NCBI GenBank assembly: GCA_000092065.1
Contig: CP000598.1
From: Ostreococcus lucimarinus
Lineage: Eukaryota
Strand: one strand, 5' to 3'
DNA: 64,000 nucleotides
Positions 3,217-55,688 of this stretch are shown here, piece after piece (the first letter of the stretch is position 1; the number at the start of each line of letters is the position of its first letter). The translations under genes were made by a program, and so were the position numbers. The notes below the pieces were generated by a model. It was not told where the DNA came from, did not search any database, and saw only the letters and a list, made by a program, of their open reading frames with translations.

Positions 3217-3287
3217 TAATATATTATTAAATATGATAATTCAGATCCGTCTGGTCATCGCAAACCCTGGATCCTTCGGACTGTGCT

Positions 3288-21198: not shown

Positions 21199-21213
21199 CC
21201 TCCTTAGCTTTCT

Positions 21214-24200: not shown

Positions 24201-25212
24201 TCCTTTCTGCTACGCCATTTTGCCACGGATGTCCTACATCACTCTTGGAAAATACCATTCCATGATCATCACAGAATTTTCCAAATGTAGACTTGATATC
24301 GCCACCACCATCGGAGTGTATCCGCTTGAGTCGAATTTCTCCATCTTGATGGTATCTTCTGCGGTGGTCTTGTATTAACGCTAGATCGCGCTTAAATTCC
24401 TTAAGCGCATGTGTCAGTGACCTTTCCTCAACGGTGGACGGCCGATTGCTCTCTACGGGGTAGACCAGCTGGAATCTGGTATACTCATCTGTAACGGTCA
24501 AACATGCCTTTTGATCTACAATCTTACAAACCATAGAACCTCTTGGCGGTCCGAAAGTCACGTCCATGTGGACAATTTCAAACGGTTTTGTACATCGCTT
24601 GGTACTCCTCTTACCGTGATTCGTTTGTCTTGTATGACCTATCTTGCATGTGACGCAATTATCGGCAGCATTATTCAACTTTGCTTGTAGCTCGTCCAGA
24701 GGTTTGTCACTTGTTATCCAACTATTGTTGAATGCAGTAAGTAATGTATTACTTGACACATGGCCAAGTGTATCATGTATTAACGTCGGTATCCAGAATA
24801 TGGGCCGTTTTGACGATATATCTATCACCGGCAATCCATCGTGACGTCGACGAACATTAACATCATGATATTTTCCATCTTCATCTGGTAATTTGATACT
24901 TCCGCCGGAGTCATTTAGGCTAATCGGGTAACCTGTGCATGATAATATTCCGGCTCCTGGAAGATCGGCTCCAGGGGCACAGTTTGCCTCGAAATGGAAT
25001 TCAAAATGTTTTCCTTCCGTGTCAACTAGATCAACCTTTGCAACTCCTGATTTGGTCACTACCGTAGTGCCGTTGATAGAGGTCAAGATTTCGTTTCCTC
25101 GAGACTTCACGTTGTGCAACTTTAGTGCATCATTTATTACACTCACACACGCTCCACTGTCGACCAGTAAAGTATTTTTGTTGCCTAGATGATATGTCTC
25201 GAGGATTATCGG
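21214..25212 (-). CDS. copia Pol (protease-integrase-RT-RNaseH). It is read in frame directly after the gag UGA and has no ATG of its own.
   Basis: Reading on from the gag stop gives PIILETYHLGNKNTLLVDSGACVS..., so the PR active site lies immediately downstream of the stop. The tracked ORF start at 25146 is a GTG. Confidence 0.8.
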   Translation of the reverse strand, partial: PIILETYHLGNKNTLLVDSGACVSVINDALKLHNVKSRGNEILTSINGTTVVTKSGVAKVDLVDTEGKHFEFHFEANCAPGADLPGAGILSCTGYPISLNDSGGSIKLPDEDGKYHDVNVRRRHDGLPVIDISSKRPIFWIPTLIHDTLGHVSSNTLLTAFNNSWITSDKPLDELQAKLNNAADNCVTCKIGHTRQTNHGKRSTKRCTKPFEIVHMDVTFGPPRGSMVCKIVDQKACLTVTDEYTRFQLVYPVESNRPSTVEERSLTHALKEFKRDLALIQDHRRRYHQDGEIRLKRIHSDGGGDIKSTFGKFCDDHGMVFSKSDVGHPWQNGVAERTNQALKIIAKKLLIASGVPSEFWVYAMKYAATVRNITGVKVHNKLQSPYYEVFGHGVDIQVLHPFGCKAYMARNVIAQNLSNQHPASRPDWCVSRFPVWFIGYSSVTLHPKKYVVVLSNSILKRQGSAPGYVQETSELIFDHENYVNRPALNNAGSVNAQNGEHPGLTGDRTELTDNSILPPELVILPPELSDRRDLDDWLNDLLDSQKEDQGYKSESDCEDDDLDEDYPQSGGEAALNNAGSALNNASEPFPALNNAEAALNNAGSALNNASDVVPALNNANAGLVEDFLEFARERTRMDQSSLQDKYPGWGPSGFSPEILEEVEGGVDAENNADVGTDQPTDDIEHLVNHFKENGRVSEDELKKQVIYLTCKYSHIQLQGGSYGDKTVKLNPALNNADSTNRAAHSVLATAVAKGEEYGKIIDESSVDFSESRAKELNGLLETTLMEVSIVEAGDANICGSKWVDKVKPDGSLKSRLVVQGFTQVWLKDYHDTFSAVASMTTFRILINLAAILGWDIFTIDVSQAYTQGELLDDIYVKAPRSHPLPKGMVYKLRRPLYGTKQAGRCWYLHVTKTLRSLGLNQLCKDSCLFVKMSNSKPFMIISVLVDDLLITAENDEVVKQFHKEFSRIYKVSQFERIKVYNGIHIKRLGKNCYTLNQEYSIAQFLAKCPVQDINACNSPLLPSDTFVLAKEDDTDAVDRMKRTTYQQVLGSLNWFNTATRPDLAVVCSLAGRVASNPTHKQFSALCRAVGYLKRNPNIPLTYNGAECNGIVRLAGFTDSDWAGQKLSLNSKDRCGRKSTSGYISFSCGPTNWKSKLQGIPATSSAQAEFMAMYEAAKDLFFQILLFRELGFKLSRVPLFCDNTTAIRQAMETMSSKSNKHMEIRYSWIQHYAHREGIIQPFNIGSSHNLADMLTKILPNKKNFSGPADVHECSNHFNVMLSHISSKDIRDFINQRLSEGMVKSDALHTFQEYLEKVESEEIQPFKGIGKPSD

Positions 25213-25215
25213 TCA

Positions 25216-26391
25216 CTCGTCTTTCTCTTTTGGATCAGACTCGTTCCCTCTTGGTTTCTTATTGGCAAACTTGTCTACCCGCCGCTGCAGATCAGGACGT
25301 AACGGCGATTTACACTCCCAATACCTGTGACCTTTCCTGTTACAGTTGAAGCAAGCTCCTTTCGGCTGAAACTTCTTCCGCTTCAGATTATTCACAGCAA
25401 GCTGTTTAGGTGATGTCTCCTGATCGAGTTTATCAGCTATAACAAGCTTATTCGTGCATTTGGTAAAGTCCAGTTTGTCGCGCTGCTGGGAAAGTAACTC
25501 CTCACACACCTTTTTGACATTCGTTCGAGACAGCGGAGACGCCAACAACATAACGAGTATTGTTTCGGTGAAACCACTGAATTCGATCGTTTCCGAAGTG
25601 GTGAGTTCGTTCCCATTTATCGTGAACGCAGATTGAACCTGCCGACGCAACCTCAGCCCGTTGTTGAGTCTAACTTGACTATCATTTGGGAGGGAAGTAA
25701 ACAATTTTCTTTTGTTACCCAAGAATTCCGCCATGTTTCCGGATCCAGTGTACTTTATGTCATTTAACCGATTCTCTACGAGAGTTTGGATCGTTGAGTA
25801 AGGGTCTAATTCCAGAAGTAATCTGTCTAACAAAGTAATCCCCGACCAAGTCGCTCTTGACGCTCTCATGTCGCTTACGAGCTTCTTGAGTTGTTCAGGA
25901 AATACATTTGATAAATCAAAAACGCCGTCAGCCAGTTCTTGATCCGCAACATCGAGCGGTACCAATGTCCTATCCGGATGTAACTTCTCATAGTCTTTCA
26001 CTGTAACACGATTATTCTCAGCGTTAGCAGGTGGTAACCCCGGGAGTCCGTTGGAATCCCTTTCATCCTGCATTACGTTGTAAACGTATTTACACAAATC
26101 GATGTTATCACGGAATGTAATATCCAGCGAAGCTACGATTGCGGTGATCCTGCAAAGATCCATATTGGCATTTTTATACTTTGCATCAATGTAGTGGCGC
26201 AACAGCTTATCCGCAGCGATCGACACACTGACGGCCTCCGTTTTCCTTCTTCCGTTGATTTTAGAAGATGTAAACCTGTAGTTCAAAGATTGAACCATTA
26301 AATCTATAAATTCGACTACGTTGTCGCCTTGAACACCGCTCTTGAAACGCGTGAACGACGCCAGGTCCGTTGGTAGGAACGCTTCCGACAT
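25216..26391 (-). CDS. copia Gag (capsid/nucleocapsid with one CCHC zinc knuckle)
   Basis: The ATG at 26391 was verified. The protein ends ...SDPKEKDE, followed by TGA at 25215-25213. Confidence 0.8.
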
Positions 26392-26578
26392 CTTGCTTTG
26401 GTTAAGCGTTTTAAGGCGTTACTAAATTTAGAATCTTCTAAAAATAGAACGATTCGCTCTAAAAATAGAACGACTCTTTACAAACCGATCGAGGCGCAAA
26501 AGGCACTCTTCCGATTGACACTAATCGTAGGTCCACGCTAGCGTGCTGCACGTCGTCGCAGATGGCAGAATCGTACGA

Positions 26579-26753
26579 TGCGAGCTATACCTTATATGAT
26601 GGTGAGCAATCGGGCCTAGTGCGTCGATAAGTGATGATAATTACAATCAGTTGTGGTTAGTTCATTAATGAGTGTTAACTCGTCAATTAGTCCCGCTAGG
26701 TTACTAGGGGAAGCTACTATATTTCATATTTTACTCTTCAGATTTCTAACACA
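26579..26753 (-). repeat. copia 5' LTR
   Basis: Identical to 21024-21198. Confidence 0.8.
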
Positions 26754-28654
26754 CTTCGACTATGTATCACGAATGCGGATCCTCGCACTTGAGAAACCTC
26801 GGATTTATACGTCGCGATGGGTGTCGTGCGTGAGAAACCTTGGGTTTATAAGTCGCAATAGATGTCGTGCGTGCTTGGCTTGTCTGATGCTGATTCATAC
26901 GCGCTAAGTCTATATGTAGGTCTAGTTCGTGTACAAGTAGTGTAGACATGCACGTCAGCAACAAAAAACTCCGCCGGTGCATTTGGCTTGAAAAAGTTCG
27001 AGCTCTATCACTAGATGCGACCTACCAATGATCACACCGTTCGTGTTCCTCTTAACCAACTTTGCTTGTGTGCTTCTCTGTCGGATATCTTGTCATTCTT
27101 GACCTTCTCGAAATTTGTCTCTATCCAATCCATGATCCACTTGCCCCACTCATGAATATGGCGACTCCAGACGTCGACTTCATTCCAAGATCTGATTTTC
27201 CAGGAAATAATTCTTCATTTACAAAGTTCGAATCACTAAACGCTGCCGGACATATACTCGAGTCCTTCCTGAAGTACAGTTCTACGACTTAAAATGTTCG
27301 TCAAATCAAGATTCGATACAAAGTGCGCAAATTCCGAATCGTCCAGAAGGCTGCGGCATAGATTTGTTTTTGCAACGTAAAAACGGCTTGAAAACTATCG
27401 GCCTTGAGAAATCTCAAGACAATGTCAATGTTGGCACACGTCAGCTCATCGGCGCTCACACACTCACTAAGCGCGATCATGCCGAGTCTGCAAACAGTGT
27501 TGTAAGTCTGGCTATCATATTTGTATTTGCTTACTGCGCTCTTTTCATTTTAAAGAGGATGCCGAAGCGGATTTAAAGTTGGCCACGTTGAGAGGCTCAG
27601 ATAAGAGCATGTATTATTAGCTTGTATTCTTGATAAGCCTTTCCGGATAGAATGCGTGACGAGTTACGACTCAACTGCAACTGTGAACATCAATCGAAAC
27701 TGAAAGTTCAGAAGTTGTGACCGCTCGCTGGAAAATTGACCCACTACCGACGGTGACAGTCGCCGTGGCGAATTGTTTTTGTTTGGGCACTGCGCAGACG
27801 AAATCGAGAATTTTGGCGATATGAGGTGAGGACTATGCGAGGCGGGGGGAGAGTCTACGCGGTCTTGGTCCCAGTGGCATTCCTTCCTAGCCGACTGCGT
27901 CTCTGTAGGAACGTTTCGCCGTCGATGAGCTACACCAGAAGTATCGCGACGGCATATCGCGACGATGGGCGCCGCCGCCTAGGCGCGGGAAGTCTGATCC
28001 CGGCTACGAAAGATATAAGACCCACCCCGCGTTACGAAAGTCTTGATACAGTGTATGGTTTTTCATAGTGCAGTGCAACGAACGTGTCGAATACGATGAC
28101 GCGTGAAATGAAGGGGAAACGACGACCAAACGGGGTTCCACAGCGCGCAGGGTTCGTGCGTATTTCGCGCGCGGCGTCTTGTCGGCGTGCTCATCCATCG
28201 CGACGAAAGTGGGCGAGGCCGATGCACGTTGGCTTTTACACGTTCTGCGCGTCGTTCGCCGATCCGGCGTGGGGACGCGGTTCTCGCGCGCGCGTCGCGC
28301 GTCGCGCGCGCCGCGAAGGCGACGACGACGACGATCGCGCTTCCGAGACCCTCGTCGCGCGTCTCCGCGCGCGTCGCGTCGCGTGCGGTTCGCGCGACGC
28401 GTCGCGCGCGCGCGACTGGGCTCGTTCGGTGCGTTGCGCCGCCGCGGTGCGGTGGCGGCGCGCGCGACCGCGCGGGCGCGCGTTTCAGTGATGGCGTGCG
28501 TGATTGCATAACGCCCGTTTCAGTGATGGCGTGTGTGTCTGTTGCGATGATGGTATATATGGCTCGTTTCGAAGTAAAATATGTATATTAGATCGTATTA
28601 TGATACATTTAAGTCTATCTGTGTGATCCATGGATACATTTTCGTTCGATTGAT

Positions 28655-29641
28655 TTTTTCGGTCGCGAAAGCGCGCGGTCGCCGGGTCAACCAACACCTT
28701 CATCTCCGGGGGGGATCGAAGATTGTTTTTTACGGTCGCGCGCGCGGTCGCCGCGGACGCCCCCGCCCTCGTCGACGCCGCGCTGACTGTCGCGCGCTGA
28801 CTGACGCGCGCTGACTGACGCGCGCGCGATCGAACGCCGCGAGTGGGGAAAGGCGAACGCGCGACGTCGTCGCGCGCGCCCCCGCGCGTCCCGGAGCGAA
28901 CCGCGCGTCGTCGTCGTCGCCGTCGCCGTCGCGCGCGTACGCTTCGGAACGCGAAAATCGTTTTTCGTCGCGGGGGGACTGCGGTGCGGGTCGTCTCACA
29001 CTTCGGGACGCCGACGATGGTGTCGTCCGGCGACGCCGACGTCGACGACGCGGTCGAACGACGCCATCGGCGCGGTCGCGGTCGCGCCGTTCACGATCTT
29101 CTGCCGTCGTCCTCGACGGCGCCAGCGCGCGCAGCGGCAGATCTCGCGGCGATTCAAAAAACCGATACGATCGACGATCGCGCCAACGCGAAACGCGCGC
29201 GAACAGCGACGGCGTCGCCCGACGAGAGTTCCCCTCCCATGATTTCGTTCGACGATATGTTCATCGATGCGCTCGACGGCTTCACGACGTACACCGAGGC
29301 GAAAACGAACACCGTCCCGCCGGTTGAAGCAGCAACCGGTCGAGGCGCGCTCCCGAGGCGGTTTTGCAAGAGCTGTCGGAAAGCGCTCGACGTGTTTCGT
29401 GATTTCGACGGGGAGCTGAAGACGTGTCGACTGTGTTTGCGCGTGCGCAAGAAGGACGCGAAACGCAAACGCGCGCTACGGCGGGCGGACGCGAAAAGGT
29501 CGGGCGACGGCGACGGTAAAAAAGGCGCGGCTTCGTAGAGAAGCTGAACGCAGGGAACGACGACGAGTCGCGGATGCGCGCGAAACGATCGATCTTTGAT
29601 TCGACGCGCCTTCGGTATAGTAGTGTGTTTTGCTCTGTAGC
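28655..29641. repeat. Segment duplicated at 58354-59158. The second copy carries a ~190-bp internal deletion. The segment includes GC-rich low-complexity sequence and a small C-x2-C...C-x2-C ORF.
   Basis: Aligned directly; the two copies are near-identical outside the deletion. Confidence 0.6.
29017..29538 (+). CDS. Hypothetical basic protein with a putative C4 zinc-binding motif (FCKSCRKAL...CRLCL). A duplicated copy is at 58717-59055.
   Basis: The first in-frame ATG is at 29017. The ORF is conserved in both copies, but the context is GC-rich, so the coding status is uncertain. Confidence 0.3.
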   Translation: MVSSGDADVDDAVERRHRRGRGRAVHDLLPSSSTAPARAAADLAAIQKTDTIDDRANAKRARTATASPDESSPPMISFDDMFIDALDGFTTYTEAKTNTVPPVEAATGRGALPRRFCKSCRKALDVFRDFDGELKTCRLCLRVRKKDAKRKRALRRADAKRSGDGDGKKGAAS

Positions 29642-31078: not shown

Positions 31079-32599
31079 TCACCAATACGTTCCGTCGACA
31101 GAGCTCTCAAAAGAGGTGATCGCCACCACGGCGCTGTATGCCCCATTACCGAGGACGAAAACGAACCGATACTCGCCACCATTTGATACACTGAAAACAA
31201 CACTGCTCGCGTCAGATCCGTGCGCGAAGATTTTCGTCCAAGATGATGTCGAACTCTCCAAGTACACATCGCATGAATCGTCAAAAATCAGAGACATAGT
31301 GTAAGAACCACTCGCCAAGGCGTACCAGCCAGAAATTGTGATCCAATTGTTGTTTGTGCCGTAAAAAGAATCGCCCGACGGTCCGCACGCATCGATCCAG
31401 CAGTGCCAGTGATTGCAAAATCCAGTGTTGAACGTTCGATCGGGCTCGTCTTTCTCCAAACACGGTTGACCGTCGATCGTCTCCCATCCGAGACCAATTG
31501 ACCCCGAAGTCTTTGAGTACGCCATGCCCACCTCTCGCCATGCACCCTCGCCACATTGTGTGTAATCGGAGACCCATGTGGAGGCGGCACACGTAGCGCT
31601 GAAAGAAAAGACTCGTTCTTTGACGACAGTTTCCGAAGGACGGCTGCTCCCTGAATATGAAGGTGAACGGTACCACACGTCACTGGATGACGGTCTTCCG
31701 CTTTGCGTCGTTTGACTCACCTGATTAGGACTCGGTGGCGGCGGACTCGGTGGCGGACTCGGCGGCGGGCTCGGCGGCGTCTCGCACGTTTCTCCCGACC
31801 AAGAGCCGGCACACACGCATGTCCACTGCGTGCCGTCGTACTGCAACTTTTCGCCTCCGGGAGGTATACATTTTGGTGGTAAAGTGCTGTTTGAAAGCGC
31901 GTCCACGCGCGCGAGAAGCTCGTTGATTCTGCTCAGCAACGCCGTTTCGTTCGCCTTGAGTTCGGCGTTCGTGGCGTTGAGCGCGTCCAGTCTGCTCGTC
32001 ATCGCAACATCGCTCGCCTTGAGTTCGGCGTTCGTGGCGTTGAGCGCGTCCAGTCTGCTCGTCATCACGGCACTCAACTCTACTTCCGTGGCGTTCAGAG
32101 CGTTCACGCGCGATTCTAAAGCCGCATGCGTCGACTCCACGGTATCAACTCGACTCGAAATGCCCACGCTCGAAGACGCGCCGCAGTACACGTCGCCGTC
32201 GACGCGCACCTTTTGTGTCTTCAAGACGATTTCGGCGTCCGTCCCAACGCTCTCCACGTACACGTCGCCGTCGTCGTTGGCGACCGTGACGCGCTTCAGC
32301 GTTGAATCGTGCGCCACGGGCTGCGCGGGGCGTCGAAAAGCAAAGAACGCGGTCAGTCGACTCGGGTCGGGCGGTCGGGGCGGGGAGCGAGAGATCGTTC
32401 GTTCGTTTGACGACGGTCGGTGGCGCCACGCACCCAGCGTTGTGCGCGCACGACGATCATCGCCGCGGCGAAAACGCTCGCGAACGCGCGGATCGATCGC
32501 GCCGCGCGCGGCGTTCGACGCGAGGGGCGTCGACGGCGTCGTCGGGCATCGTTCGCGGGGGGACGAAAGACGCTGTGAGGGTTTCGCCGCGCGATCCAC
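31079..32599 (-). CDS. Secreted/surface adhesin-like protein. It has 21-aa repeats that each carry an N-A-T sequon, an EGF-like Cys cluster, a Ser-Pro3 (extensin/HRGP-like) linker, and a C-terminal PA14/GLEYA-like domain. The start is uncertain because no ATG occurs at the ORF start; there may be an upstream exon.
   Basis: The repeats read TSRLDALNATNAELKA.... The linker is SPPPSPPPSPPPPSP. The C-terminal region has DDSCDVYL...GGEYRFVFVLGNGAYS. Confidence 0.45.
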   Translation of the reverse strand: MDRAAKPSQRLSSPRERCPTTPSTPLASNAARGAIDPRVRERFRRGDDRRARTTLGAWRHRPSSNERTISRSPPRPPDPSRLTAFFAFRRPAQPVAHDSTLKRVTVANDDGDVYVESVGTDAEIVLKTQKVRVDGDVYCGASSSVGISSRVDTVESTHAALESRVNALNATEVELSAVMTSRLDALNATNAELKASDVAMTSRLDALNATNAELKANETALLSRINELLARVDALSNSTLPPKCIPPGGEKLQYDGTQWTCVCAGSWSGETCETPPSPPPSPPPSPPPPSPNQVSQTTQSGRPSSSDVWYRSPSYSGSSRPSETVVKERVFSFSATCAASTWVSDYTQCGEGAWREVGMAYSKTSGSIGLGWETIDGQPCLEKDEPDRTFNTGFCNHWHCWIDACGPSGDSFYGTNNNWITISGWYALASGSYTMSLIFDDSCDVYLESSTSSWTKIFAHGSDASSVVFSVSNGGEYRFVFVLGNGAYSAVVAITSFESSVDGTYW

Positions 32600-33366: not shown

Positions 33367-33838
33367 CGTCCGCGGTCGTTCGCGTCGACATAGTTCAAGT
33401 GGTACCCTTGGACGACGGGCCCACCCGTGCGCACCCACGGGTGGGTGAAGTGCGTTTCCGTGGCGCGCCGTCGCCGTTCGGTCCTTCGCGGGCGACCGTA
33501 GCGCAACCGGGCGATCTCCGTGCGGGCGGCGCGACGCGACGCCGGTGCACGCATCGCAAGGGGCACACGCCGGGGGCACGGCGCCATTCGCGGCGAACGG
33601 TACGCCACCACACACGTTCGCAGCGGCGGACGGCATGCGTGGGCGGGTTGGAGGCAACGTTGTATTGAAAATTGCGTACAGCACTGTTGGGCAGACCGGC
33701 TCGTTGAAGCAGCATACGGATCTACGAGCGAAAGCATTTTCTCCGTCGAATATCATAGGGAAACAGCATGATAGATCAGTTGCACGGTCGAATCACAGTG
33801 CTCGAGCATCCTTCAGTTATCATACGTTGAAGGTGAAA

Positions 33839-36800
33839 ATGATTTTAACACTCGTATCCATCGCTATATCCATGGGAAATACACTTGCGAGTGGTAGCAT
33901 AGCGCTCACCGACGCAACGTTTTCTACTGCGATCGCTAGTTGCCTCGAGGAGGCAGCGTCGGATGGCCTGTGTACTTCTTACGGCTTTGCAAGTGGGTTC
34001 GGAGCGATGCCTGATTGGGACACGGGCAATGTCACGAACATGGGTAGTGCATTTTCGTCTAAATACTACTTCAATGCATCCATCGGGAACTGGAACACGT
34101 CGCGAGTGACGTATATGGGTTCCATGTTTCAGTCTGCGTATTCGTTTAATCAGGACATCGGGAACTGGAACACGTCGCAGGTGACGAACATGTATTCCAT
34201 GTTTCAGTCTGCGAATTCGTTTAATCAGGACATCGGGAACTGGAACACGGCGCGAGTGACGTATATGGGTTCCATGTTTCAGTATGCATCTTCGTTTGAT
34301 CAGGACATCGGGGGCTGGAACACGTCGCAGGTGACGAACATGTATTCCATGTTTCAGTATGCGTCTTCGTTTGATCAGGATATCGGGAACTGGAACACGT
34401 CGCGAGTGACGTATATGTATTCCATGTTTCAGGGCGCATCTGCGTTTGATCAGGACATCGGGGGCTGGAACACGTCGCGAGTGACCAATATGGGTTCCAT
34501 GTTTCAGTATGCATCTTCGTTTGATCAGGACATCACAAACTGGAACACGTCGCGAGTGACCAATATGGGTTCCATGTTTCAGTATGCATCTTCGTTTGAT
34601 CAGGACATCACAAACTGGAACACGGCGCGAGTAACGTACATGACCAACATTTTCCAAAACGCGACGGCGTTTCAGGCGAAATATACATGTTCGACCGTTC
34701 AATCTGGACCCATCGCATCGTGTTCGCAGTGCGTTGCAAACTGTGCCGCTTGTAGTAACACTGCGTCGGGTGTTTGTAGTGTTTGCATGACTGGGTACAC
34801 ATTAGACGGAGGAATGTGTGCGGCACCCGCTGCGGCGCTCACCGACGCAACGTTTTCTACTGCGATCGCTAGTTGCCTCGAGGAGGCAGCGTCGGATGGC
34901 CTGTGTACTTCTTACGGCTTTGCAAGTGGGTTCGGAGCGATGCCTGATTGGGACACGGGCAATGTCACGAACATGGGTAGTGCATTTTCGTCTAAATACT
35001 ACTTCAATGCATCCATCGGGAACTGGAACACGTCGCGAGTGACGTATATGGGTTCCATGTTTCAGTCTGCGTATTCGTTTAATCAGGACATCGGGAACTG
35101 GAACACGTCGCAGGTGACGAACATGTATTCCATGTTTCAGTCTGCGAATTCGTTTAATCAGGACATCGGGAACTGGAACACGGCGCGAGTGACGTATATG
35201 GGTTCCATGTTTCAGTATGCATCTTCGTTTGATCAGGACATCGGGGGCTGGAACACGTCGCAGGTGACGAACATGTATTCCATGTTTCAGTATGCGTCTT
35301 CGTTTGATCAGGATATCGGGAACTGGAACACGTCGCGAGTGACGTATATGTATTCCATGTTTCAGGGCGCATCTGCGTTTGATCAGGACATCGGGGGCTG
35401 GAACACGTCGCGAGTGACCAATATGGGTTCCATGTTTCAGTATGCATCTTCGTTTGATCAGGACATCACAAACTGGAACACGTCGCGAGTGACCAATATG
35501 GGTTCCATGTTTCAGTATGCATCTTCGTTTGATCAGGACATCACAAACTGGAACACGGCGCGAGTAACGTACATGACCAACATTTTCCAAAACGCGACGG
35601 CGTTTCAGGCGAAATATACATGTTCGACCGTTCAATCTGGACCCATCGCATCGTGTCGATCGGGGTCACCATTTCAGAATTCGACCGAGTTGAAGCTTGC
35701 GGTCGACAGCTGTTTACTCGCGGATCCAACAGGAAATTGTGATTGCAGAAGTTCTCTGGTCGACTGCCGGGCGGCGAGCGGCGATTCAATATCGAAATGG
35801 GATACACGCTTCGTAACGAATATGAGCTCCTTGTTTGCAGGATCAGATCAATTTAACGCAGATTTAGGTGCTTGGAACACAAGTGCCGTTACTTCGATGT
35901 CGCACATGTTTCATGGAGCCGCTGCGTTCAACAAAGACATTAGTGGTACGTATAATGCGAATATCTTCGCGTGGGACGTGAGCGGCGTGACGGACATGAC
36001 TCGAATGTTCGAAGGCGCTAATAGTTTCGCTCAGGACATCAGCTCGTGGAACGTGGTGAACGTCGCGAGCATGGACAGTATGTTTTCGGGCGCAAACGCG
36101 TTCAACGCGCCCATCGGCAGTTGGAACACAGACGGCGTGACAAACATGTTTCAGATGTTCCACTCAGCACATGTGTTCGATCAACCAATCGGAAGCTGGA
36201 ACACGGAACGGGTGACGAGCATGCAGTGCATGTTCATGTATGCGCGTGAATTCAATCAGGATATCAGCTCCTGGAACACGGTCAACGTGGTAAATATGTG
36301 GGATATGTTTAATAGTGCGGATGCGTTCAACCAGAACATTGGGTTATGGAACACAGAGGAGGTGACGGATATGAGATACATGTTCTATAACGCGGGTGCG
36401 TTCAACCAGCCCATAGGGTCGTGGAACACCGCCAATGTCACGACCATGCGATCTATGTTTCAGGGCGCATCTGCGTTTAATCAGGACATCGGAAACTGGA
36501 ACACGACTTCTGTCACGGACATGTACAGCATGTTTGGTAGCGCGACGGCGTTCAATCAGAACATCACGGGATGGCACACGCCGAATACTGGTATTACTTG
36601 CGATTCATCGCAAACGGCGTGTGGTGATACAGGGTGTTTTGACATCGGTAATTGTGCTGCTGCGATGTTTTCCGGTGCGACAGCTTGGTTAGCGAGGTAT
36701 GCTCGCATGGATGGGAATGCGTCGAGCACCGATGGACCTCCGTCTCAGTGGGTCGGCCCGACACCATTTTTGAGTCGAGACGCTTTAGTCGCGGCGGTTG

Positions 36801-39800
36801 ATAATTGCTTGACCGAGGACGAGACGGGAAGTTGCGATTGCTCTGATTACGACGTCGATTGTGGCGCCGCCGTAAAGCTGCCGATCACGGAATGGGACGT
36901 GAGCCTCATCGTGGATATGAACGAGCTATTTAAGGCTCGAGCAGCTTTCAATCAACCGGTTGGTGTTTGGAACACTAGTAGCGTGACGGATATGAGCGGC
37001 ATGTTTGAGAGCGCATCCGCGTTTAACCAGCCCGTTGGTAACTGGAACACGGGTAGTGTGACGGACATGAGCGGCATGTTTGAGAGCGCATCCGCGTTTA
37101 ACCAGCCCATTGGTAACTGGGCCACGGGCAGTGTGGCGGATATGAGCGGGATGTTTGAGAGCGCATCTGAATTCAATCAGAATATTAGTAGCTGGTCAGT
37201 CGCTTCTGTGGTGAACATGCAATCCATGTTTTCCTCTGCTTCATCCTTCGAGCAAGACATCACTGGATGGATTTCAACTAGTGTCACGACGGACATGGCG
37301 ACGGACATGTTTCTCTCTGCGACAGCTTGGCTGCGAACATTCGCACGCACAGATGGCGAAGACACCCCCCATGGTCCACCATCCGATTGGGGCGAACCGT
37401 GTGGCAATGGGTGGTACGATGAGAAAGTTCAGGGGGAGAAGGAGGATGACTTTTGTGAGCCAAAAGTGAACGGGATTGAAGTGAAAGGATGTGCAGATGA
37501 CTGCAAAGTAAAAACGAACTGGAAGTGCGACAATGTCGACTTGCTACGCCCCGGTGATGACTTCGACAGCTACAATTGTACGTGCGACAACCCGGTGGGC
37601 ACGTATGCATCACCTAATCTTGATAATGATTGTGCTCGCACAGATTGCGTTTATGTCGAACGGTGTCTCGCTAACGGCCTAGGCTGTGCGCCCGGTGCCG
37701 GTGGAATGTGGGACGTGGGACGTGGAACGTGGGACGCGGTGAACGCATGCGGCAAGTGCTTGAGGGCCGCTGATATTGCCGAGCTCCCACTCAACGAACG
37801 AAGTAGGCACAACAAGGCTGGCTATTACAAGACTGGGCAGACGTGCACGGCTTGTCCTGCGACATCAGCCGCGGGACTTTTCGCTGCGGCTGCGGTTGTC
37901 GTCGTCCTCGCTTTTTGTGGTTTCAAAGCCTCTCAATTGATGGGCGCTCAAGCGACGAACAATTTGAAGAAAATTGTCGAGTCGCTGCAGTTCTTCTCTC
38001 TTTCGCTCAGTATGAGTATCAAGTGGCCTGGGCCCGTACTCAATCTCGGTAAATATTTGGAAGCTTTCACGTTCAGCATTGAGTTTCTACGACCCCAATG
38101 CGTCGCTGCGGGGCTGGATTGGCTCAATATATTTTTGTCCTCGGTGTTTGTCGTTCCCGCTCTCATCTTCATAATCATCGTCGTGAACAATAGACGGGCG
38201 AGGCACCGTTACAAAACAACGGTGCGCGCGATCGACAGTGAACGACACGAGGATGGCGAAACGGTCTACTGGATCGAGAAACCAGGGTTCCTGTGGGGTA
38301 CGCGGAGAGCTTACGAGTCCAAGGGCGGAGATAAGATTGTTCGTGAGTTGCAGCGCCAGTATCGGTTTCGAGCCGCGCTTCGATCTTTCGGCGTACTGTC
38401 ACTGACCATCCTGTACCTTCCCATCGTGCGTATGTGCCTTCAGTCATACGATTGCATAAAGATAGACGGCGTGGATGGGCTTCGATTGGAGCATGACATA
38501 GATATCCTCTGTGAAAGCGAAGGGCACGTGATCATCCAGGCCGCCGCCGCGGTGATGTTGGCCATTGTCGGTATCGGCATGCCAATTTACGTCGTTATGC
38601 AAGTTCGTAAGATCCGTTTGAGTGGTAAACTGGATGATCCGCAGACTATCGACTCGTATGGTCCGTTCTACGACGTCTACCGGCGCGAGGAGCTCACACA
38701 TGATCACAAATTGGAGATTGCGAGGATTCGACAAACCGCGGTCGAGTCGTCCTCATTTCGACGAGGCGAAGGCACGAGCGACGAACGTCCTTTCGATGCA
38801 GCAACTGATGATATTGCAGAAGAAATCGCAAATGAAGTCAGGGTCGACACGGAAGAAGATTCAAGCGACGTCGATCGTGTTGACGTCGAGGACGATAGTG
38901 GCACTCCACCACCTCAGAAAGTTTCATCCGGTCTCGGTAAGCTCGCTCGGGCGTTAACGATGACGAAGTCTGCTTTAGGCCGGACGACGTCAGCGAAAGC
39001 GCGCGAACGGGCACATCGAATGCACTGGAAGGACAGGTTCGCGCTTCACTACCTGGCCGTTGAACTAGTGCAGAAGAGTTGCGTCATTTTGACGACGTCT
39101 CCGATAGTGGCCGAAACCGCGGTGAGCGGTTGGGCTCTGGTTGTCGTACACTGGTTTACCGGCGCCTTCGTCTACGTGTGTCAGCCTTGGCGCATCATGA
39201 CGCTCGGCTTCGGCAAATACAAGGTGCGAAATTGCTTGAACAAAGTCGAGTCCTTGGCTGGATTTTTGCAGGGCGTGGGACCGTTCTTGGCAATGATCTT
39301 CCCTGTTCAGAGAAACGAGTTCGGTGAGGTGAAGCAAACTGTGACACTCTCAGCCATAACTGTCCTGCTGACCATCATAATCACCGGGCTGCTTTCTATT
39401 CGTATCATTGTTTTCGTCGGCGAACGCGTCGCCGTCAAACGAAAGAAGATGGATATCGACAAGGATCCCGAGAAATGCATGCAAAATGTTCACAAACAAC
39501 TGGTCAAGCTCGCAACCAACAGAGCGATTGTGAGCATGTTTGCTTTCAAGGCAGATTTCGACATTAAGCGCCGTAAAGCACGCGCGAGGCTGGAAGATAC
39601 TCGCCAAGCGATGTTATCGCGCATCGATATCTTGAAGTCACAACAGACCGACGAGGACCATTCCGATAAAATTACCGCGTTGTACGAAGTGGCGAATGAA
39701 ATGGCACACATCGTGAATACGATCGTACCCCAAGCACCGCCAACAGGTCCAAACGCAGAAGGGTGTATCGAATTGCTGGATGAACAACTGGCATCAATTC

Positions 39801-41368
39801 TCAAGGACGTCGACGTCCGAGCGCAGGCGAACGCGTTAGACGCTCCGAATTCTGCGGCGGTACATATCGTGATGAAGGTCCACGCGTTCGATACAATCAT
39901 ATGTCGACTTGACGAACATTTGCTCGAATTCGCGGCGGCAGAACGTGTGAGTGAGCTCGCCGAGCTGGGTCGAAGACACGCTGAATTACGACATACGCGA
40001 CGTTGTGTCGCGATAGGTTTCGGCGACGCAGAGCTTCGAGCTACTTTCGATGCGCTAAGATCGTGCATCGAGGCACTCCGCCATGCCGTTGAGAACGACG
40101 ACTTCGAAGCTGTATTCACAACTTTCAATGGTGGGAAGGAGATCATTGATTCTCACTTACGATGGTGTCGGGATCAATGTGAATTGTTCAAGAGCGCCGA
40201 GGACGAGCACCCCGATTTCCTCGAGGACGAGCCTCCACTGACGACCGAGTTTTTCAAGGCGACAGTCAAGGTGATACAATCCCATGAAAAGCAACTGTCT
40301 AAATTTAAATCGGAATGTATTCGTAACTGGCCCCCGCTTTTCAAGAACTTTGGCCGCGTCAAGTACATACAAGGCTTTGCTGAGCAACTTCAGAATCAAC
40401 TCCATCTCGATCTCAATGAAAGCACGCCGGAGGAGGCCAAGGCTGTTTTCGATCAGGTGTTGGCCTTCACAGATGGCTTCGCGCTTTGGTGCGGCGATTT
40501 AGTGGCACAGGTCGAAGGCTCAGATGTCTTCATCTTGTTTGAGCCAATCGCCCGCGCGATGGTGGAAAGCTTGAAAGCCATCAGAGCAGACGCTGAGTCG
40601 CAAAGTGCACTCGCGAGGCAAGCATTGAGTACGATAGATTATGTGGTGACGCAACGGGCGTTGGCCGCAACGACGCGGTCGGGCTTGCAGACAGCACTCG
40701 CGGATGGTACGTCTGCGCTTGAAGACCAGCTCGCCGCAGAAATTGCAGACATGGACGCTGCGAAGATTTCTCGAGAGACTACTTTCGAGACCGAAAAGAT
40801 GCGCACCGAGGAAGCTTTGAATACATTAGAGCAAGAGTTGGACGGTAGGCGAGCGGTTTTAGAGGACGACATTCGATCGCAACAGGACACTATCGCGCGG
40901 CTACAAAACTTGAAACGGGAAGAGGCCGCGGCATCGAGCTCTATAAACCCGTTGAAATGGGAGCGTTTCAGTCGAAGCACTGAGCTCGCCGAAGCTGTAA
41001 GTGCACTCCGTATGAGCAAACAAAACTTGAAGAATGAAGAGCTTGCAAATGAGAAGGCCCGCGGGGATGCGCGTAAGGCGGTTCATTCGTTGGAACGGGG
41101 CCTGAAAAAGGACCTGGTCGAATGTGACGTCCGAGCAAAGAAAATCCGAGACGATGTGGCAAAGGAGCTGAAGAAACAAACTATGGATGCTCAGAGGAAG
41201 ACACCCGAAGATGCTAAAGCCCATAAGGCTAGTCTGGCTTCCAGGCGCGCGGTGTTCCAGCAACAACGCGCCGCCGCTAAACTCATCGCGAGCGAAAGTA
41301 GAGAAGCTACGCGAATTCAAGCACAGCTTGCATACTACATGCGAAATTTAAAGGCGCGCGAATCGTGA
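33839..41368 (+). CDS. Giant (about 2500 aa) type I transmembrane protein with the following layout:
- signal peptide ([19 protein letters not shown]);
- about 40 DUF285 (PF03382, 'Mycoplasma lipoprotein'-type, ~26 aa) repeats in four blocks;
- Cys-rich modules;
- a TM/multi-TM region;
- a long cytoplasmic coiled-coil domain that is shared with the gene at 51947-53832.
   Basis: The repeat unit is FQ(Y/S)[14 protein letters not shown](R/Q)VT(N/Y)M(G/Y)SMF. The hydrophobic stretch [17 protein letters not shown] is at about 37.87 kb. The first ATG in frame with a signal peptide is at 33839. Confidence 0.75.
33902..35767 (+). repeat. Perfect in-frame tandem duplication: two units of 933 bp (311 aa). 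Bases 33902-34723 are identical to 34835-35656, and each unit encodes 10 DUF285 repeats.
   Basis: Read directly. The antisense ORFs at 33845-34702 and 34802-35635 translate identically over 277 aa. Confidence 0.8.
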
Positions 41369-41702
41369 TATAACGGTCGACTACGAGGAATACACGCATA
41401 GTCGAAACATGAGCACCCTGTCGCAGAAGGAGCTGAGTTTCCGCTTCGTTACGGATGAGATTGTGCGAGAAGACATGCCACATTCAAATTCGGGGCGATG
41501 GCTCACAAATCAGGCAAGAGAAGACAGGTGCACGTGCAAACTCTCAGCGGAACGAGTTGGTCGTCTCGAAGATCTCGGTGTTTGGTGAGACCAAGCCGAC
41601 GCACAGGAGGAGCACTTCGATGCCTGGAGGTACAGAAGATGTAACTCATCTTAAGCGTACGACTATTCAGACCTTGGGGGTTCCGCTTAAGATTTCTTCG
41701 GA

Positions 41703-42020
41703 ATGGAATCTCTGAACGCAAGGCGTGGATGTACATTAAACCATGAACGAGGCGGGCCACGGTTCGATTTTTTGGATTACAAGTGTAGGTCTACTTTTAC
41801 GTTTCGTGGACTCTGCTTGAGTCGGCCGATGTCACCATGTCAGTCAGGTGCTTCGAGTGCACTAGAGACGTGACCGCCCATACACAGGACGTCGAGCTCG
41901 GCGTGCCTGATTTCACGACTCGGCGACCATGGTTTGAAACCGAAATGACCATCGGCTTCAGGCCCAGGCGCGGCCGCAATGCTACTTTAAACTTAATATT
42001 TTTTTTTTGAAAAAAGAGTA
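41703..42020. repeat. Dispersed repeat of about 310 bp, with a second copy at 48395-48703. It ends in a T10/A6 tract and is flanked by taagat(t/c)tcttc(a/g)gaa. It is absent from the otherwise homologous position at ~54130.
   Basis: The two copies are about 93% identical over ~300 bp. The site is empty in the paralogous segment. Confidence 0.45.
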
Positions 42021-42227
42021 GTAAGAGTAATAAAAATAAACTTTTTTTTGTTTGAGTTGGGGCACCCCAACATGATAAAACCGCACATCGCGGCGAGCCG
42101 CGCGACGACGATCACTTCGGTCACATTTCCAGTCAGTGATTCTCGTCGTGTGATTCATCGTGTTTGACGTCGACGTTGATGTACCACATGTAAGATCTCT
42201 TCAGAACCAATCGTGTGAGTGAAGTGT

Positions 42228-42725
42228 TCAGGCCAAGTCGCGTAACTCATCTAGCGTAAATTGATACTTGTCGAGACTGCGCTTTGAAGGCAGCGTGCCA
42301 CGCGCTCGAGCATTCTTGAGGCACGTCTTACGCAGTATTCTTTTCGCGTGCTGCTTGTAATAATTGAGTTGTCTGTAGTTACCATCGCCGCCGTCACGCT
42401 TCGGCGTATATTGGGCTCTGCTGTAGGCTTGACTCTCGTCCACGTTCTCGTGACACGCGTGTTTCTGGCTGCGTCCAGCAGCTCGGGAGTTGAATAAGCC
42501 GTCGCGCTTCTCTCTCATGTATGCACTTTTACGTTGATGGAGCTCTCCAGCTGGAATGTCCTTTTCGAGAACTCTCACGTCCGCGTCGCCAAACGTGAAG
42601 ATTGGATGTCGTGCGTATTTATGCGAGGCAAGGCGCGCTCTGAGCGAACCTGTCGTCGATCCGATGTACGTTTTGTCACATTTCGCATTATCGCTAAACA
42701 TTTCGTACACGCACCCCGTAGGCAT
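42228..42725 (-). CDS. Standalone GIY-YIG family nuclease (homing-endonuclease-like), 165 aa, copy A.
   Basis: GCVYEMFSDNAKCDKTYIGSTTGSLRARLASHKY gives GIY-(11)-YIG, then Arg, then His. The catalytic Glu/Asn context MREKRDGLFNS is present, and there is a basic C-terminal tail. The ATG was verified. Confidence 0.7.
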   Translation of the reverse strand: MPTGCVYEMFSDNAKCDKTYIGSTTGSLRARLASHKYARHPIFTFGDADVRVLEKDIPAGELHQRKSAYMREKRDGLFNSRAAGRSQKHACHENVDESQAYSRAQYTPKRDGGDGNYRQLNYYKQHAKRILRKTCLKNARARGTLPSKRSLDKYQFTLDELRDLA

Positions 42726-43150
42726 TTGTCCTGGTTACCTATCCATCCCTAAGAAAATATTGTTGCCTCCTCCTGCGGTTTGCAGTCACATTCGAGAGAC
42801 CATAGGTACTCGTGTCGCTGCGTGGGGTGCAAGGTCCGGGGTGTAGATATCGAACCGCCTGATTTCACACCTGGACGTTCGTGATCCGACGAGACCTGAC
42901 GAAATGACGAACTTGTTTTGTCGTCCCCAAATTCGTCAGCCCGTCGTTCGGTCACACTTTGTGTGTACCAATGATGAAAATGACGAAATGTTAAAATATT
43001 TTAATGTTTATTTTTATTTTAGATCTATGACAAGCAACAGTGTAGACCTTTATGAAAACAGTTCGTCATTCGTCATTTCGTCAGGATCCAAACCATGGTC
43101 TTTTCGGTGTCTTGTTGAGTCTTCATATTGCAAATGTACGAATCACAAAA

Positions 43151-43669
43151 TTAGTATGAACACCAGACGACCGCCGGCGCGAGCTCCGTCTCCCCCGTGT
43201 ACCCATTGTTCTTCAGCCACTCGAAGCACCCGTCGCGGTCAATTTCCCAATAGACGCCCTTCTCGTCCCTACCTTGCCTCAGGTGGTCCTCTTCCATTGG
43301 GATCCTGTGGCCCTTTTCCTTCTTGAAGAAGTCCTTGAGCTTATTGCCGACCTTCGTCGCGCTATCTTGTCCACGCGCAGCCGCTGGCAACCACGTCTGG
43401 TATTCGATGAAGATGTCACTGTTGCGGATTTTATTTCCAACCCACTTCTCAGGGAATTCAACAGTGACGCAATGCTCAAACCATCGAGTGAACTTGGGCA
43501 TGCAGCCACGCTTCATTTCCGAATACGCGTCGGTCGTAGGTCTCGTGCGCTCCACATGATAACCGGTACGGAGAAGTTTATATTTATTAATTAAAGACTC
43601 GCGCGTGTTGGCGCTAAATGATTTTATTGCTGCCGAGAGACTCAAGTTTGGCCGTCGTTTGAGTCGCAT
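43151..43669 (-). CDS. Hypothetical 172-aa basic protein encoded next to the GIY-YIG gene (copy A).
   Basis: The first ATG is at 43669 (the tracked start is TTG). I recognise no family. It has motifs such as KFTRWFEHCV and GVYWEIDRDG. Confidence 0.45.
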   Translation of the reverse strand: MRLKRRPNLSLSAAIKSFSANTRESLINKYKLLRTGYHVERTRPTTDAYSEMKRGCMPKFTRWFEHCVTVEFPEKWVGNKIRNSDIFIEYQTWLPAAARGQDSATKVGNKLKDFFKKEKGHRIPMEEDHLRQGRDEKGVYWEIDRDGCFEWLKNNGYTGETELAPAVVWCSY

Positions 43670-43746
43670 CGATGGGTCGCGCCCGCCGATATAACGCCGG
43701 CGTTTCGGACACGATCTTGAAAACAAGCACTGGTTGACTTGATTGA

Positions 43747-46272
43747 TTAGGAAACCTTATCCGTGCCTTTTACGCTGAGCCCGGTCATGGACGGCTTCGT
43801 CGGCATGGTGAACGCGGTGTAGTCCGCCGCCGTGGGCACCGTGATGCTCGTGTCGTACGACATCCCGGAGCACGCCGACGCATCGGCGGGAGCAAGCATT
43901 TCGACACCACTTTCGAGTTTCAAGACGTACCGGTCGCCAGTCGATGGTTGTTTGAACGTGGTGCCATCGGGGATCAGGACATCCGGACGGCGATGGTAAC
44001 CATTGTTGTCGTCGCACTCCTCGTTGCCATACTGGTCGACCTCGGGCGCCGCGCGCGAACCAGTCATCGGATTGAAGCAAATGAACGGCGCGTCGCCCAA
44101 CCAACCGCCTTCGTAACGCACGTTGAGATTCACCCCGGAGTAGTCGGTACCGGATGGAGAGCGCAGCAACACGGCGTCCGTGGGTATCTTGCCTTGAAGC
44201 TGGAGAGGCGCATCCATGAACTTCTTTGACGCGGAGTCCGAAGGATCTTCGAGCCACGCCATGCCCTCCCAATTGCTTGAGCTCCACTCGTAGTGCACAT
44301 CCAATTTGTTGGGTTCCTCGCAAACGTCGGTAGTGGCGGTGCAACTCAAAGTGTCGAGGTTCGCAGGTGTAGCTTCGAAGAGAACCATATGAACTTCTCC
44401 CGAGTCAAAGAATGAGTTGGTTGGGTCCATTACGACTTCAGCGCCGAGGGTGCCGGAAACGTCTTCCTTCAACGAGCCGGTATCTTTGTCGAAGACGTAC
44501 TTTTTATAAGTGCTTCGAGCGTCGTTGTATCCGTTCGGCGAGCCGTAGAACTGGCTGTCGTGACTGCTCGCACTCGATAGCTTCGTCTGGTCGATACACC
44601 GCTCGCCGCACGTGAGTGCGAGGTGGCTGCTGAGCGACCCAGGGGGGACGGTTTGCGCGTCAGACACTTTGAAGTGCGTCAGGTTAAGCAAACTCGCAGA
44701 GCCTCGGCCGAAGATGCTTCCCCAGCAGCGTATGATTTGGTTGTCAATGTCAGCCATCGTGAGCGCACGCGGAGTCGTGATTGAGTTCGTGTTCAGCGAT
44801 CCACCGTTCCAAGTTCGCTTCGACGACAACACGAGTGCGTTCGCGTCGGAGTCATACCTGAACTTGACCTCAACTTCTGCAGCGTTAGTGTCATCCCAGA
44901 ACCAGCCTGTGATCGTCGCCCCTTGGTAGTCGCTTGCGCTTCGCACCGTCGCCGTGAACTTGTACAACACCCCGCGTGAGACTTTGAGCCTCTTGTTCAC
45001 GTTCAGTATCGGATCATCCCAATCGACAATTTCCTCTACTACGTTCCCGTCGGTGAACGCGGTTTGAGCGATAGTCTTCTCGGCGGTACTGAGCGCGGTG
45101 TCGGAAATGTAGTCGTAATCGGAAATGTAGAGATTGCCCGGATAGTGCAGATCAGCATTATACGTCTTGCCGTCGCTGCCTGTAGCCTGAAGATGCACGT
45201 AGCTTTGAAGGTTCACCTTCGCCCCGTTGCTGTCGTACGCGCCGTAGCGCTCACCGAAGAACGATCTGTTCTCGAGTTCATCGCAGAATGACTGCCCGTA
45301 CGCCTTCGTCTTGACGAGCGTAGCGGTAGTCACCAATTGACCCGCTTGTGTCGAACCATTATCAAAGTCGATGGTCTGGAAAGAGGCCTTCGTGATGTCG
45401 TTTTCTGCGCGCGATTTAGCACCCGCGGTGAATGAATTGCTGCCTCGTGTCACCTCTTCCCACCACGTGACCCCGGTCGCCGTGCAATCCGAATCCGCGT
45501 CGGTGGTTTCGCACTCGCGACGAACCACACCTTTGATGCGTTGGGACGCGGTCGAGCCAGTCGGCGATTGGTACGTAAAGGTAAAGTTTTTCACCAAGAT
45601 TTTGTCAGACTTGATGGCGACGTCATCGCGCTTGACGATCATTTCCGTGTCGATGTTCGGCATTTCTGGGGTATCGCTGAGGGCTACCCAGACGTTCGTC
45701 TTGAAATCACGGGTATCGCTCGCGTCGTCGATGTCTGGGCCCGTGGCGTTGACGACCCAACGGTACGTAACCTTACCCTTGATTCGGTCGCCGTCGCTGT
45801 TGTCACAGTGGAAAGGATCGATCTCAGCGATGTATGGGCCAGTGTTCAGGTTCGCCGTCCAGTTCACCGAGGCGACGTAGCAAAGAACCATGTTTGGTAT
45901 CTGGAAAATTTCGGTACTTACAGCGTCGACGAACGTCTCCGCCGGCGGCGCCGTGGCGTAGTCGGACGTCGAAGAGAACGAAGACACTTCGAGAGGCGTC
46001 ACCTCGACGAGCGAACGACCATCGATTCGAGACGAACCAGAAGACGTCGTCGAAACACCCTCTGACGGGATCATGGTGACTTTACGCGGCGTCAACGCCG
46101 CCTTGAGCGCGTTCGTCTTCGCCGCGCCCGACAGCCCGCTGACGGTGGTCGGGGTCGGGGCCGGGGCCGGGGTCGCGTCGTCATCCCTGAGCCCGATGCC
46201 GAGGCCGGTGCCAAGGGCGACCACCACGGCGGCGACACCAACGATCGCGATCGCAACGCCACGTCTCACCAT
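43747..46272 (-). CDS. Protein of about 841 aa anchored by a signal anchor or N-terminal TM segment. It has a (TPAP)n linker and a large Ser/Thr/Asp/Trp-rich ectodomain. Copy A.
   Basis: The ATG was verified. The N-terminus reads VAIAIVGVAAVVVALGTGLGIGL. I recognise no catalytic motif. Confidence 0.55.
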   Translation of the reverse strand: MVRRGVAIAIVGVAAVVVALGTGLGIGLRDDDATPAPAPTPTTVSGLSGAAKTNALKAALTPRKVTMIPSEGVSTTSSGSSRIDGRSLVEVTPLEVSSFSSTSDYATAPPAETFVDAVSTEIFQIPNMVLCYVASVNWTANLNTGPYIAEIDPFHCDNSDGDRIKGKVTYRWVVNATGPDIDDASDTRDFKTNVWVALSDTPEMPNIDTEMIVKRDDVAIKSDKILVKNFTFTYQSPTGSTASQRIKGVVRRECETTDADSDCTATGVTWWEEVTRGSNSFTAGAKSRAENDITKASFQTIDFDNGSTQAGQLVTTATLVKTKAYGQSFCDELENRSFFGERYGAYDSNGAKVNLQSYVHLQATGSDGKTYNADLHYPGNLYISDYDYISDTALSTAEKTIAQTAFTDGNVVEEIVDWDDPILNVNKRLKVSRGVLYKFTATVRSASDYQGATITGWFWDDTNAAEVEVKFRYDSDANALVLSSKRTWNGGSLNTNSITTPRALTMADIDNQIIRCWGSIFGRGSASLLNLTHFKVSDAQTVPPGSLSSHLALTCGERCIDQTKLSSASSHDSQFYGSPNGYNDARSTYKKYVFDKDTGSLKEDVSGTLGAEVVMDPTNSFFDSGEVHMVLFEATPANLDTLSCTATTDVCEEPNKLDVHYEWSSSNWEGMAWLEDPSDSASKKFMDAPLQLQGKIPTDAVLLRSPSGTDYSGVNLNVRYEGGWLGDAPFICFNPMTGSRAAPEVDQYGNEECDDNNGYHRRPDVLIPDGTTFKQPSTGDRYVLKLESGVEMLAPADASACSGMSYDTSITVPTAADYTAFTMPTKPSMTGLSVKGTDKVS

Positions 46273-46409
46273 CGTCGCGCGTTGAAATGCGGCGACGACA
46301 AGTGGCGACGGTGACGCGATCTGCCCGCACGCAATTCAATTCCTTCGGGTCACCTTATCTTTTGGAGCCCCCGGAAACGCGACTGTTTACCAATACGATG
46401 GTTCCCGGG

Positions 46410-48181: not shown

Positions 48182-48756
48182 CAACAGTATGGGCAAACAG
48201 TTAGGCGTTCTCCATGGCCTCCATTCGCGCGACCAGAGCGTTGACGCGCTCTTCGAGTTCGTCGATGCGGCGTTGTTTAGCGTCGTTCGCGCTCTCTACA
48301 TCGGCGCGACATAGAATAACGATAATCTATATCTGCTATATCTGCTTAATATTCTGCTTAAGATTTCGGCACCCTCGCTTAAGATCTCTTCAGAATGGAA
48401 TCTCTGAATGCAAGGCGTGGATGTACATTAAACCATGAACGGACCACGGTTCGATTTTTTTTATTACAAGTGTAGGTCTACTTTTACGTTTGGTGGACTC
48501 CGCTTGAGTCGGCCGATGTCACCGTGTCAGGTGTTCAGAGTGCACTAGAGACGTGACCGCCGATACACAGGGCGTCGAGCTCGGCGTGCCTGATTTCACG
48601 ACTCGGCGACCATGATTTGAAACCGAAATGACCATCGGCTTCAGGCCCAGGCGCGGCCGCAATGCTACTTTAAACTTAATATTTTTTTTTTGAAAAAAGA
48701 GTACTATAGTACTTTTGGTGTTTAAACGTGTTCGTGATATGATTGATAGTCCGTGA

Positions 48757-55611: not shown

Positions 55612-55688
55612 CGATGGGTCGCGCCCGCCGATATAACGCCGGCGTTTCGGACACGATCTTGAAAACAAGCACTGGTTGACTTGATTGA

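Follow-up and report, generated by a model that had tools for sequence, protein, structure and literature searches.

How do two segments of one gene, separated by a short spacer, come to carry exactly the same 822 bp? The question is raised by a 64,000-nucleotide stretch of Ostreococcus lucimarinus DNA (the window; GenBank assembly GCA_000092065.1, contig CP000598.1), which contains a giant gene for a predicted membrane protein built of DUF285 repeats, defined by Röske et al. (2010, BMC Genomics 11:430; PMC2996958) as PARCELs (palindromic amphipathic repeat coding elements). The initial annotation of this sequence had described a perfect 933-bp tandem duplication at 33902-35767, and had offered very recent duplication, ongoing concerted evolution or an assembly fault as its origin. 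We hold with good confidence that the locus contains a real, in-frame array of 1.88 units, kept identical by concerted evolution in the predicted extracellular part of a giant PARCEL membrane protein.

Extent and composition of the array

Comparison of the sequence with itself at an offset of 933 bp revealed that 33902-34723 and 34835-35656 match at 822 of 822 bases, confirmed as 100% identity by megablast. At that offset no other run reaches 15 matches between 33000 and 36500, and a perfect match of this length cannot arise by chance. The repeat is in frame, extending from codon position 1 to codon position 3 of the open reading frame (ORF) 33545-41368, and its period corresponds to 311 codons. 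The start, period, 822-bp identity and frame of the annotated duplication were therefore reproduced, whereas its end coordinate was wrong and the 111-bp linker between the copies occurs only once. The 111 bp following copy 2 (35657-35767) are the start of a different module, with 23% identity to the linker, i.e. random, and the sequence ahead of copy 1 is likewise only 28% identical to it. The array is thus module-linker-module, spanning 33902-35656, or 1.88 units.

Each module consists of a 38-aa N-cap and nine 25-aa repeats phased by W[ND]T, the ninth merging into a C-cap; the initial annotation had counted ten. Nested within the module is a perfect 75-bp duplicate (34466-34540 identical to 34541-34615), and the other internal repeat units are 81-93% identical among themselves. 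In-frame tandem repeats of very high nucleotide identity, as expected of copy-number-variable surface proteins, are thus present, here without a mismatch.

The description of the locus as a giant DUF285 gene was upheld. DUF285 was the sole Pfam family matched by the ORF (E = 0, 1193 bits, 13 stretches), and a single module scored 193 bits against TIGR02167, "PARCEL repeat-containing surface protein", for which the cut-off is 30. By these profile matches the giant protein is a member of the PARCEL/DUF285 repeat proteins (PF03382, TIGR02167).

Comparison with related alleles

The top matches to the whole protein were all metagenomic, namely P0001 (86% identity), P0002 (74%) and P0003 (69%), and proteins of O. 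tauri and Bathycoccus were ~38% identical. Over the C-terminal 1,182 aa the three metagenomic proteins are 96%, 97% and 93% identical to the window protein, and over the ectodomain 77%, 61% and 60%, with differing module architectures. P0001 is encoded on the 38.9-kb contig L001, where the same signal peptide is followed by module-linker-module-linker-module and then by homologous downstream sequence. The L001 array has a 717-bp period and six repeats per module, and its copies are 99-100% identical. They differ at a few sites, and one repeat unit differs in one copy; being distinguishable, they are not an assembly echo. The linker, which occurs twice in L001, is homologous to that of the window (65% aa identity) and lies solely between modules in both genomes.

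The window and L001 are 93-100% identical in DNA upstream and in the signal peptide and 88-98% just past the array, but only 62-85% within it. By the Nei-Gojobori method, synonymous divergence (dS) over 1,182 C-terminal codons is 0.08, and the proportion of synonymous differences (pS) is 0.52-0.73 for the N-cap, C-cap and linker, noisy estimates from 36-63 codons each, with the linker at 0.73. Estimated from this dS, ~25-30 differences would be expected in 822 bp at the flank rate since the alleles split, compared with 0 observed.

Since the homologous linker is found only between modules, and homologous sequence follows the last module, the common ancestor must already have had a module-linker-module layout. 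Contraction to one module would delete the linker, and a fresh duplication could not restore a homologous one. The layout thus predates the allele split, yet the copies are identical within a genome and diverged between genomes. Concerted evolution, proposed in the initial annotation, accommodates this pattern of 100% identity here, near-identity within L001 and 62-85% identity between the two.

The simplest account of the homogenisation is unequal crossing-over and/or gene conversion. Starting from a module-linker-module layout older than the split of the window allele and the related wild allele, unequal homologous recombination and/or gene conversion between modules would homogenise the two copies. 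The same process would alter module number (two here, three in L001) and may operate one level down, where the 75-bp repeats number nine versus six per module and units 7 and 8 form a perfect duplicate. The outcome would be an ectodomain that differs strongly between strains, carried on a conserved membrane and cytoplasmic chassis.

Further alleles extend the range of architectures. In P0002 the upstream region is shared, but the signal peptide and the modules are not the same, and both P0002 and P0003 carry the same C-terminal part without this array. Two other contigs, L002 and L003, have the same 5' region, signal peptide and N-cap with a single short module of ~4 repeats, leading directly into the tail of module 4 and, in L003, afterwards into a single membrane helix. 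Sequence comparison suggests that between one and at least five modules exist in wild populations, at this locus or in its closest paralogues. Repeat number also differs between related wild lineages, with two nine-repeat modules here versus three six-repeat modules in L001. The suspected copy-number variability is therefore seen, in related wild alleles rather than among O. lucimarinus isolates. Taken together, the earlier interpretation is supported as essentially right, with concerted evolution and copy-number variability as the favoured readings.

Other searches for independent copies of the array gave little. A linker-junction peptide searched against Joint Genome Institute (JGI) metagenome contigs yielded L002, L003 and distant module-linker-module proteins, but no further close allele with the linker, and the same peptide had no match among viral contigs. 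A search for homologues of the N-terminal 656 aa returned mostly generic DUF285 proteins, and neither XP_001422294.1, a PARCEL protein discussed below, nor further alleles. Neighbouring genes were also used as a route to independent assemblies spanning the array; a 506-aa ORF was not on record, and contigs with an 841-aa ORF break at the flanking repeats. A contrasting case is a protein of another organism (contigs L009/L011), with a module, a Cys-linker and a second module, in which the modules are clearly diverged.

Several observations on these contigs stand apart. L004, L005 and L006 encode a bacterial-looking protein (e.g. L005 9932-12367) with a signal peptide, one PARCEL module, immunoglobulin-like repeats and an autotransporter-barrel-like C-terminal region. 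Its N-cap is 66% identical to that of the Ostreococcus module, a sequence likeness that fits the horizontal-transfer history proposed for PARCELs. L001 is like a small outlier chromosome (SOC), and its gene order is unlike that of the window outside the shared blocks. Near its giant gene it carries Prim-Pol and Peptidase_S74 (tail-spike chaperone-type) genes at 2481-3752 and 21368-22459, which suggests virus-derived material.

Copy number and alternative explanations

Could the perfect repeat instead be an artefact, either three or more modules collapsed to two or one copy falsely expanded during Sanger finishing? The identity extends over roughly one Sanger read, the chromosome is full of duplications, and the full-length protein was found in no other assembly searched. 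A single copy, however, fails to account for the assembled junctions. Two different unique sequences (signal peptide and linker) lead into the modules and two (linker and module 3) follow them, so that the four junctions, signal peptide-module, module-linker, linker-module and module-module 3, need at least two copies. The reading frame is moreover open across 7.5 kb, Palenik et al. (2007) are reported to have described the genome as finished, and the metagenomic contig L001, an independent sequence from a relative, has modules and linkers in the same alternation, its three copies being distinguishable. We consider an artefact unlikely. It is still less probable that the identity simply reflects youth, the module having been duplicated for the first time, once and very recently, in the lineage of O. 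lucimarinus and without any concerted evolution. The absence of differences between the copies and the sharp repeat borders at non-homologous flanks would fit such an event, but the homology of the linker to that of L001, at the synonymous divergence given above and between alleles whose flanks have a dS of only ~0.08, makes the layout ancestral, and the first-time duplication envisaged in the initial annotation is disfavoured.

Some points weigh against concerted evolution of a two-module array. The multi-module array was seen in one independent contig only, L001, which belongs to a related lineage, so that variation is shown between lineages and not within one species. The cap and linker divergence estimates come from short alignments of 36-63 codons, and because a Sanger read has about the length of the repeat, the reference count of two, as opposed to three or more, rests on assembly. 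High divergence of the array could also reflect ectopic conversion from other PARCEL genes and not age; divergence between the alleles could accordingly be due to age with selection for diversity, or to faster turnover via such conversion.

Variation in the array may influence how the alga interacts with viruses, grazers, bacteria or other cells. In a far more specific form, which we regard as a speculation with little chance of being right, the giant PARCEL protein, encoded on the 'viral immunity' chromosome, would determine recognition at the cell surface in a strain-specific manner; it might, for instance, serve prasinoviruses for attachment, act as a decoy or distinguish self from non-self. 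Were this so, unequal recombination, by adding, removing and homogenising whole LRR-like modules, would offer a fast route to altered susceptibility, and the island of divergence confined to the array would be the footprint of diversifying or balancing selection.

Structure of the giant gene and predicted fold

The features of the gene are listed in Table 1. The likely start codon, ATG at 33839, was chosen from the signal peptide common to P0001, L002 and L003, and is also the called start of P0001. The ectodomain contains 35 phased W[ND]T repeats, and DUF285-like sequence within the window is restricted to 33902-37369 on the plus strand. The C-terminal 1,222 aa have no Pfam match; the linker has no significant one, giving only sub-threshold CXXC-type noise, e.g. 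Giardia variant-specific surface protein (VSP) at E = 0.06-0.13. The exact 2,509-aa protein had no entry in the protein collection searched. The signal peptide and hydrophobic helices predict that the protein is exposed at the surface.

Table 1 Coordinates of the giant gene, its parts and a neighbouring retrotransposon in the window.
Feature	Coordinates	Strand	Remarks
Giant PARCEL/DUF285 membrane-protein gene	33839..41368	+	2,509 aa plus stop; apparently intronless; ORF 33545-41368
Predicted signal peptide, 21 aa; unique left flank of module copy 1	33839..33901	+	from translation; DNA 98% identical to L001
Module copy 1 (M1), 274 aa	33902..34723	+	helical Cys-containing N-cap, 9 x 25-aa PARCEL repeats, C-cap
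Cys-rich linker, 37 aa (111 bp)	34724..34834	+	single occurrence
Module copy 2 (M2)	34835..35656	+	every base same as copy 1
Nested perfect 75-bp tandem duplication, repeat units 7 and 8	34466..34615 (copy 1); 35399-35548 (copy 2)	+	
Module 3 (M3)	35657..36766	+	different N-cap, ~11 repeats; outside duplication
Module 4 (M4)	36767..37399	+	~6 repeats
Cys-rich stalk	37400..37846	+	
Predicted membrane region	37847..39436	+	at least 5 hydrophobic helices; Kyte-Doolittle scan
Predicted charged cytoplasmic tail, 643 aa	39437..41365	+	helix-rich by composition; 93-97% conserved among alleles
Long terminal repeats (LTRs) of copia-type element	21024-21202 and 26579-26757		179 nt, 99% identical
pol ORF of copia-type element	21214-25146		RVT_2 + integrase
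gag-like ORF of copia-type element	25213-26391		

An AlphaFold2 model of M1 plus linker, built from a 36-sequence alignment, has a mean predicted local distance difference test (pLDDT) score of 88, with values >90 at residues 1-265 and low values in the linker; a single-sequence model gave a pLDDT of 50. A short strand recurs every 25 residues in the M1 model, which in a Foldseek comparison with the PDB matched exclusively leucine-rich repeat (LRR) proteins (LGR5, SHOC2, LRRTM2 and the Nogo receptor), at weak scores (E = 1e-4, template modelling (TM) score 0.2-0.36). The model thus has the features of an LRR-type repeat solenoid, the fold predicted for the module. A sequence search of the PDB found no relative of the module.

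Repeat units 2-8 were also compared with their own reverse complement. Identity was 42.6%, against 40.5 +/- 3.0% in column-permuted controls; the comparison was ungapped and covered whole units, and the short local palindromes described for PARCELs were not searched for.

Antisense ORFs lie above each module, at 33845-34702 (-) with 285 aa and at 34802-35635 (-) with 277 aa. Of the five non-coding frames of the 822-bp module, one antisense frame is free of stops and the other four contain 9-18. These ORFs are most likely a by-product of the repeat codon pattern, and not genes.

Chromosomal location and gene neighbourhood

The SOC of O. lucimarinus is chromosome 18, of 149 kb and 53% GC (Moreau 2012, PMC3491373). 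The window is part of chromosome 18 of O. lucimarinus CCE9901: four of its proteins occur as exact sequences in the collection searched, two of them as ABP00608/XP_001422291 and ABP00612/XP_001422295 of that strain, and a third clusters with ABP00605. The giant PARCEL/DUF285 gene sits on this SOC. GC content across the window ranges from 44 to 65%, and gene content is dense, with few introns. Nearby ORFs encode sugar epimerases/dehydratases, an aminotransferase, glycosyltransferases (GT61-like and CAP59-like), a nucleotide-sugar transporter, a methyltransferase, a BCCT transporter and a copia-type retrotransposon. The latter, an apparently intact LTR element at 21024-26757 (-), lies inside a 44-46% GC block at 18-28 kb. 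Together with the nucleotide-sugar transporter and the exact O. lucimarinus proteins, this element led us to reject a prokaryotic or phage source of the window. CG-rich simple repeats and 14-18-bp tandem repeats (28284-28414 and 28774-28825) form part of a 62% GC block that borders this low-GC region.

Dispersed segmental duplications surround the giant gene. The segments 42191-46406 and 54125-58353 are 98.8% identical, 28654-29641 and 58354-59158 are 97-98% identical, and 41684-42020 and 48376-48703 are 93% identical. The first two of these blocks adjoin in the second copy, and in the first copy they are split by ~12.5 kb that holds the giant gene. The 4.2-kb duplicated block encodes 841/843-aa ORFs of unknown function. 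Exact copies of the 841-aa protein are present in many marine metagenomes, yet solely on contigs of 3-4.5 kb.

Two further tandem repeats were found. A 132-bp repeat at 52183-52760 (4.4 copies, 94% matches) lies within overlapping ORFs and is 88-98% conserved in L001 (19980-21163). A 63-bp repeat at 31947-32112 (1.9-2.6 copies) lies in the 506-aa ORF 31079-32599 (-), just upstream of the giant gene; the sole match of this ORF was weak and of coiled-coil type (ZapB).

Comparison with known systems

The giant protein shares with PARCEL proteins its tandem 25-residue repeats of the form W-N/D-T-S-x-V-T-x-M...F-N-Q-D-I. It has very probably been noted before. In the legend to Figure 1 of Röske et al. 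(2010, PMC2996958), O. lucimarinus XP_001422294.1 appears as an example of 'repeated blocks of domains ... separated by spacer regions', with identical domains marked; such blocks are ascribed there to recent duplication by strand misalignment, and Table 2 of that paper gives one PARCEL ORF on chromosome 18. By accession order XP_001422294.1 comes after XP_001422291 (window 11600) and before XP_001422295 (window 47066), a stretch in which the giant gene is the only DUF285 gene. Given that order and the single chromosome 18 PARCEL ORF, XP_001422294.1 is very probably the giant gene. Its entry has 13 repeat domains versus 35 in the ORF reported here, and the public gene model for the locus is probably a fragment, short of repeats and of the membrane and cytoplasmic parts. 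Unlike the present analysis, Röske et al. compared no strains, and their PARCEL account covers neither the linker logic nor the identity of the DNA, nor does it treat the membrane and cytoplasmic portions.

The setting of the gene, among sugar-modifying enzymes, glycosyltransferases, a nucleotide-sugar transporter, a retrotransposon and segmental duplications, is that of a Mamiellales SOC. SOCs are described as having undergone repeated rounds of tandem duplication and rearrangement, and the size of the O. tauri SOC correlates with prasinovirus resistance (Yau 2016, PMC5082852; Blanc-Mathieu 2017, PMC5498103). The variation highlighted in the portions of this literature drawn on here differs in kind, comprising kilobase-to-100-kb rearrangements and glycosyltransferase expression. 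The available text of Yau 2016 (PMC5082852) on the O. tauri SOC gave no match for repeat surface proteins or leucine-rich, and neither a PARCEL protein nor intragenic module number is implicated in the corresponding parts of Moreau 2012, Yau 2016 and Blanc-Mathieu 2017, the last as regards hypervariability only. The array described here offers a concrete length polymorphism, testable by polymerase chain reaction (PCR), in a probable surface protein on an Ostreococcus chromosome linked to virus resistance.

Size-variable surface proteins with intragenic tandem repeats include the FLO/ALS adhesins of yeast and the Vlp/Vsa lipoproteins of Mycoplasma. As in the giant gene, where exposure is predicted, near-identical DNA repeats lie in frame in the exposed part. 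Their number shifts by recombination or slippage, as may be the case here too, and differs between strains. The Ostreococcus units differ in being very long (933 bp, a predicted LRR-like folded module plus linker) and few (two to three), and they are known from sequence alone. Plant LRR resistance and receptor genes undergo unequal crossing-over within the LRR region, and there too blocks of solenoid repeats are duplicated, deleted and homogenised, generating recognition diversity. Unlike these, the giant protein is of another LRR subtype and has a predicted multi-pass membrane region and long cytoplasmic tail, with no kinase or NB-ARC domain.

Against this background the phenomenon is a familiar one: repeated blocks have very probably been described for this protein already, surface proteins are known to vary in intragenic repeats, and the hypervariability of SOCs is published. 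What is added is modest: a corrected anatomy with a single linker, 1.88 units and a nested 75-bp duplicate; the full gene structure; and cross-allele evidence for concerted evolution together with an island of divergence at the array. Set beside a wild allele, the window array illustrates concerted evolution cleanly, if on a small scale, at two nested levels (75 bp and 933 bp).

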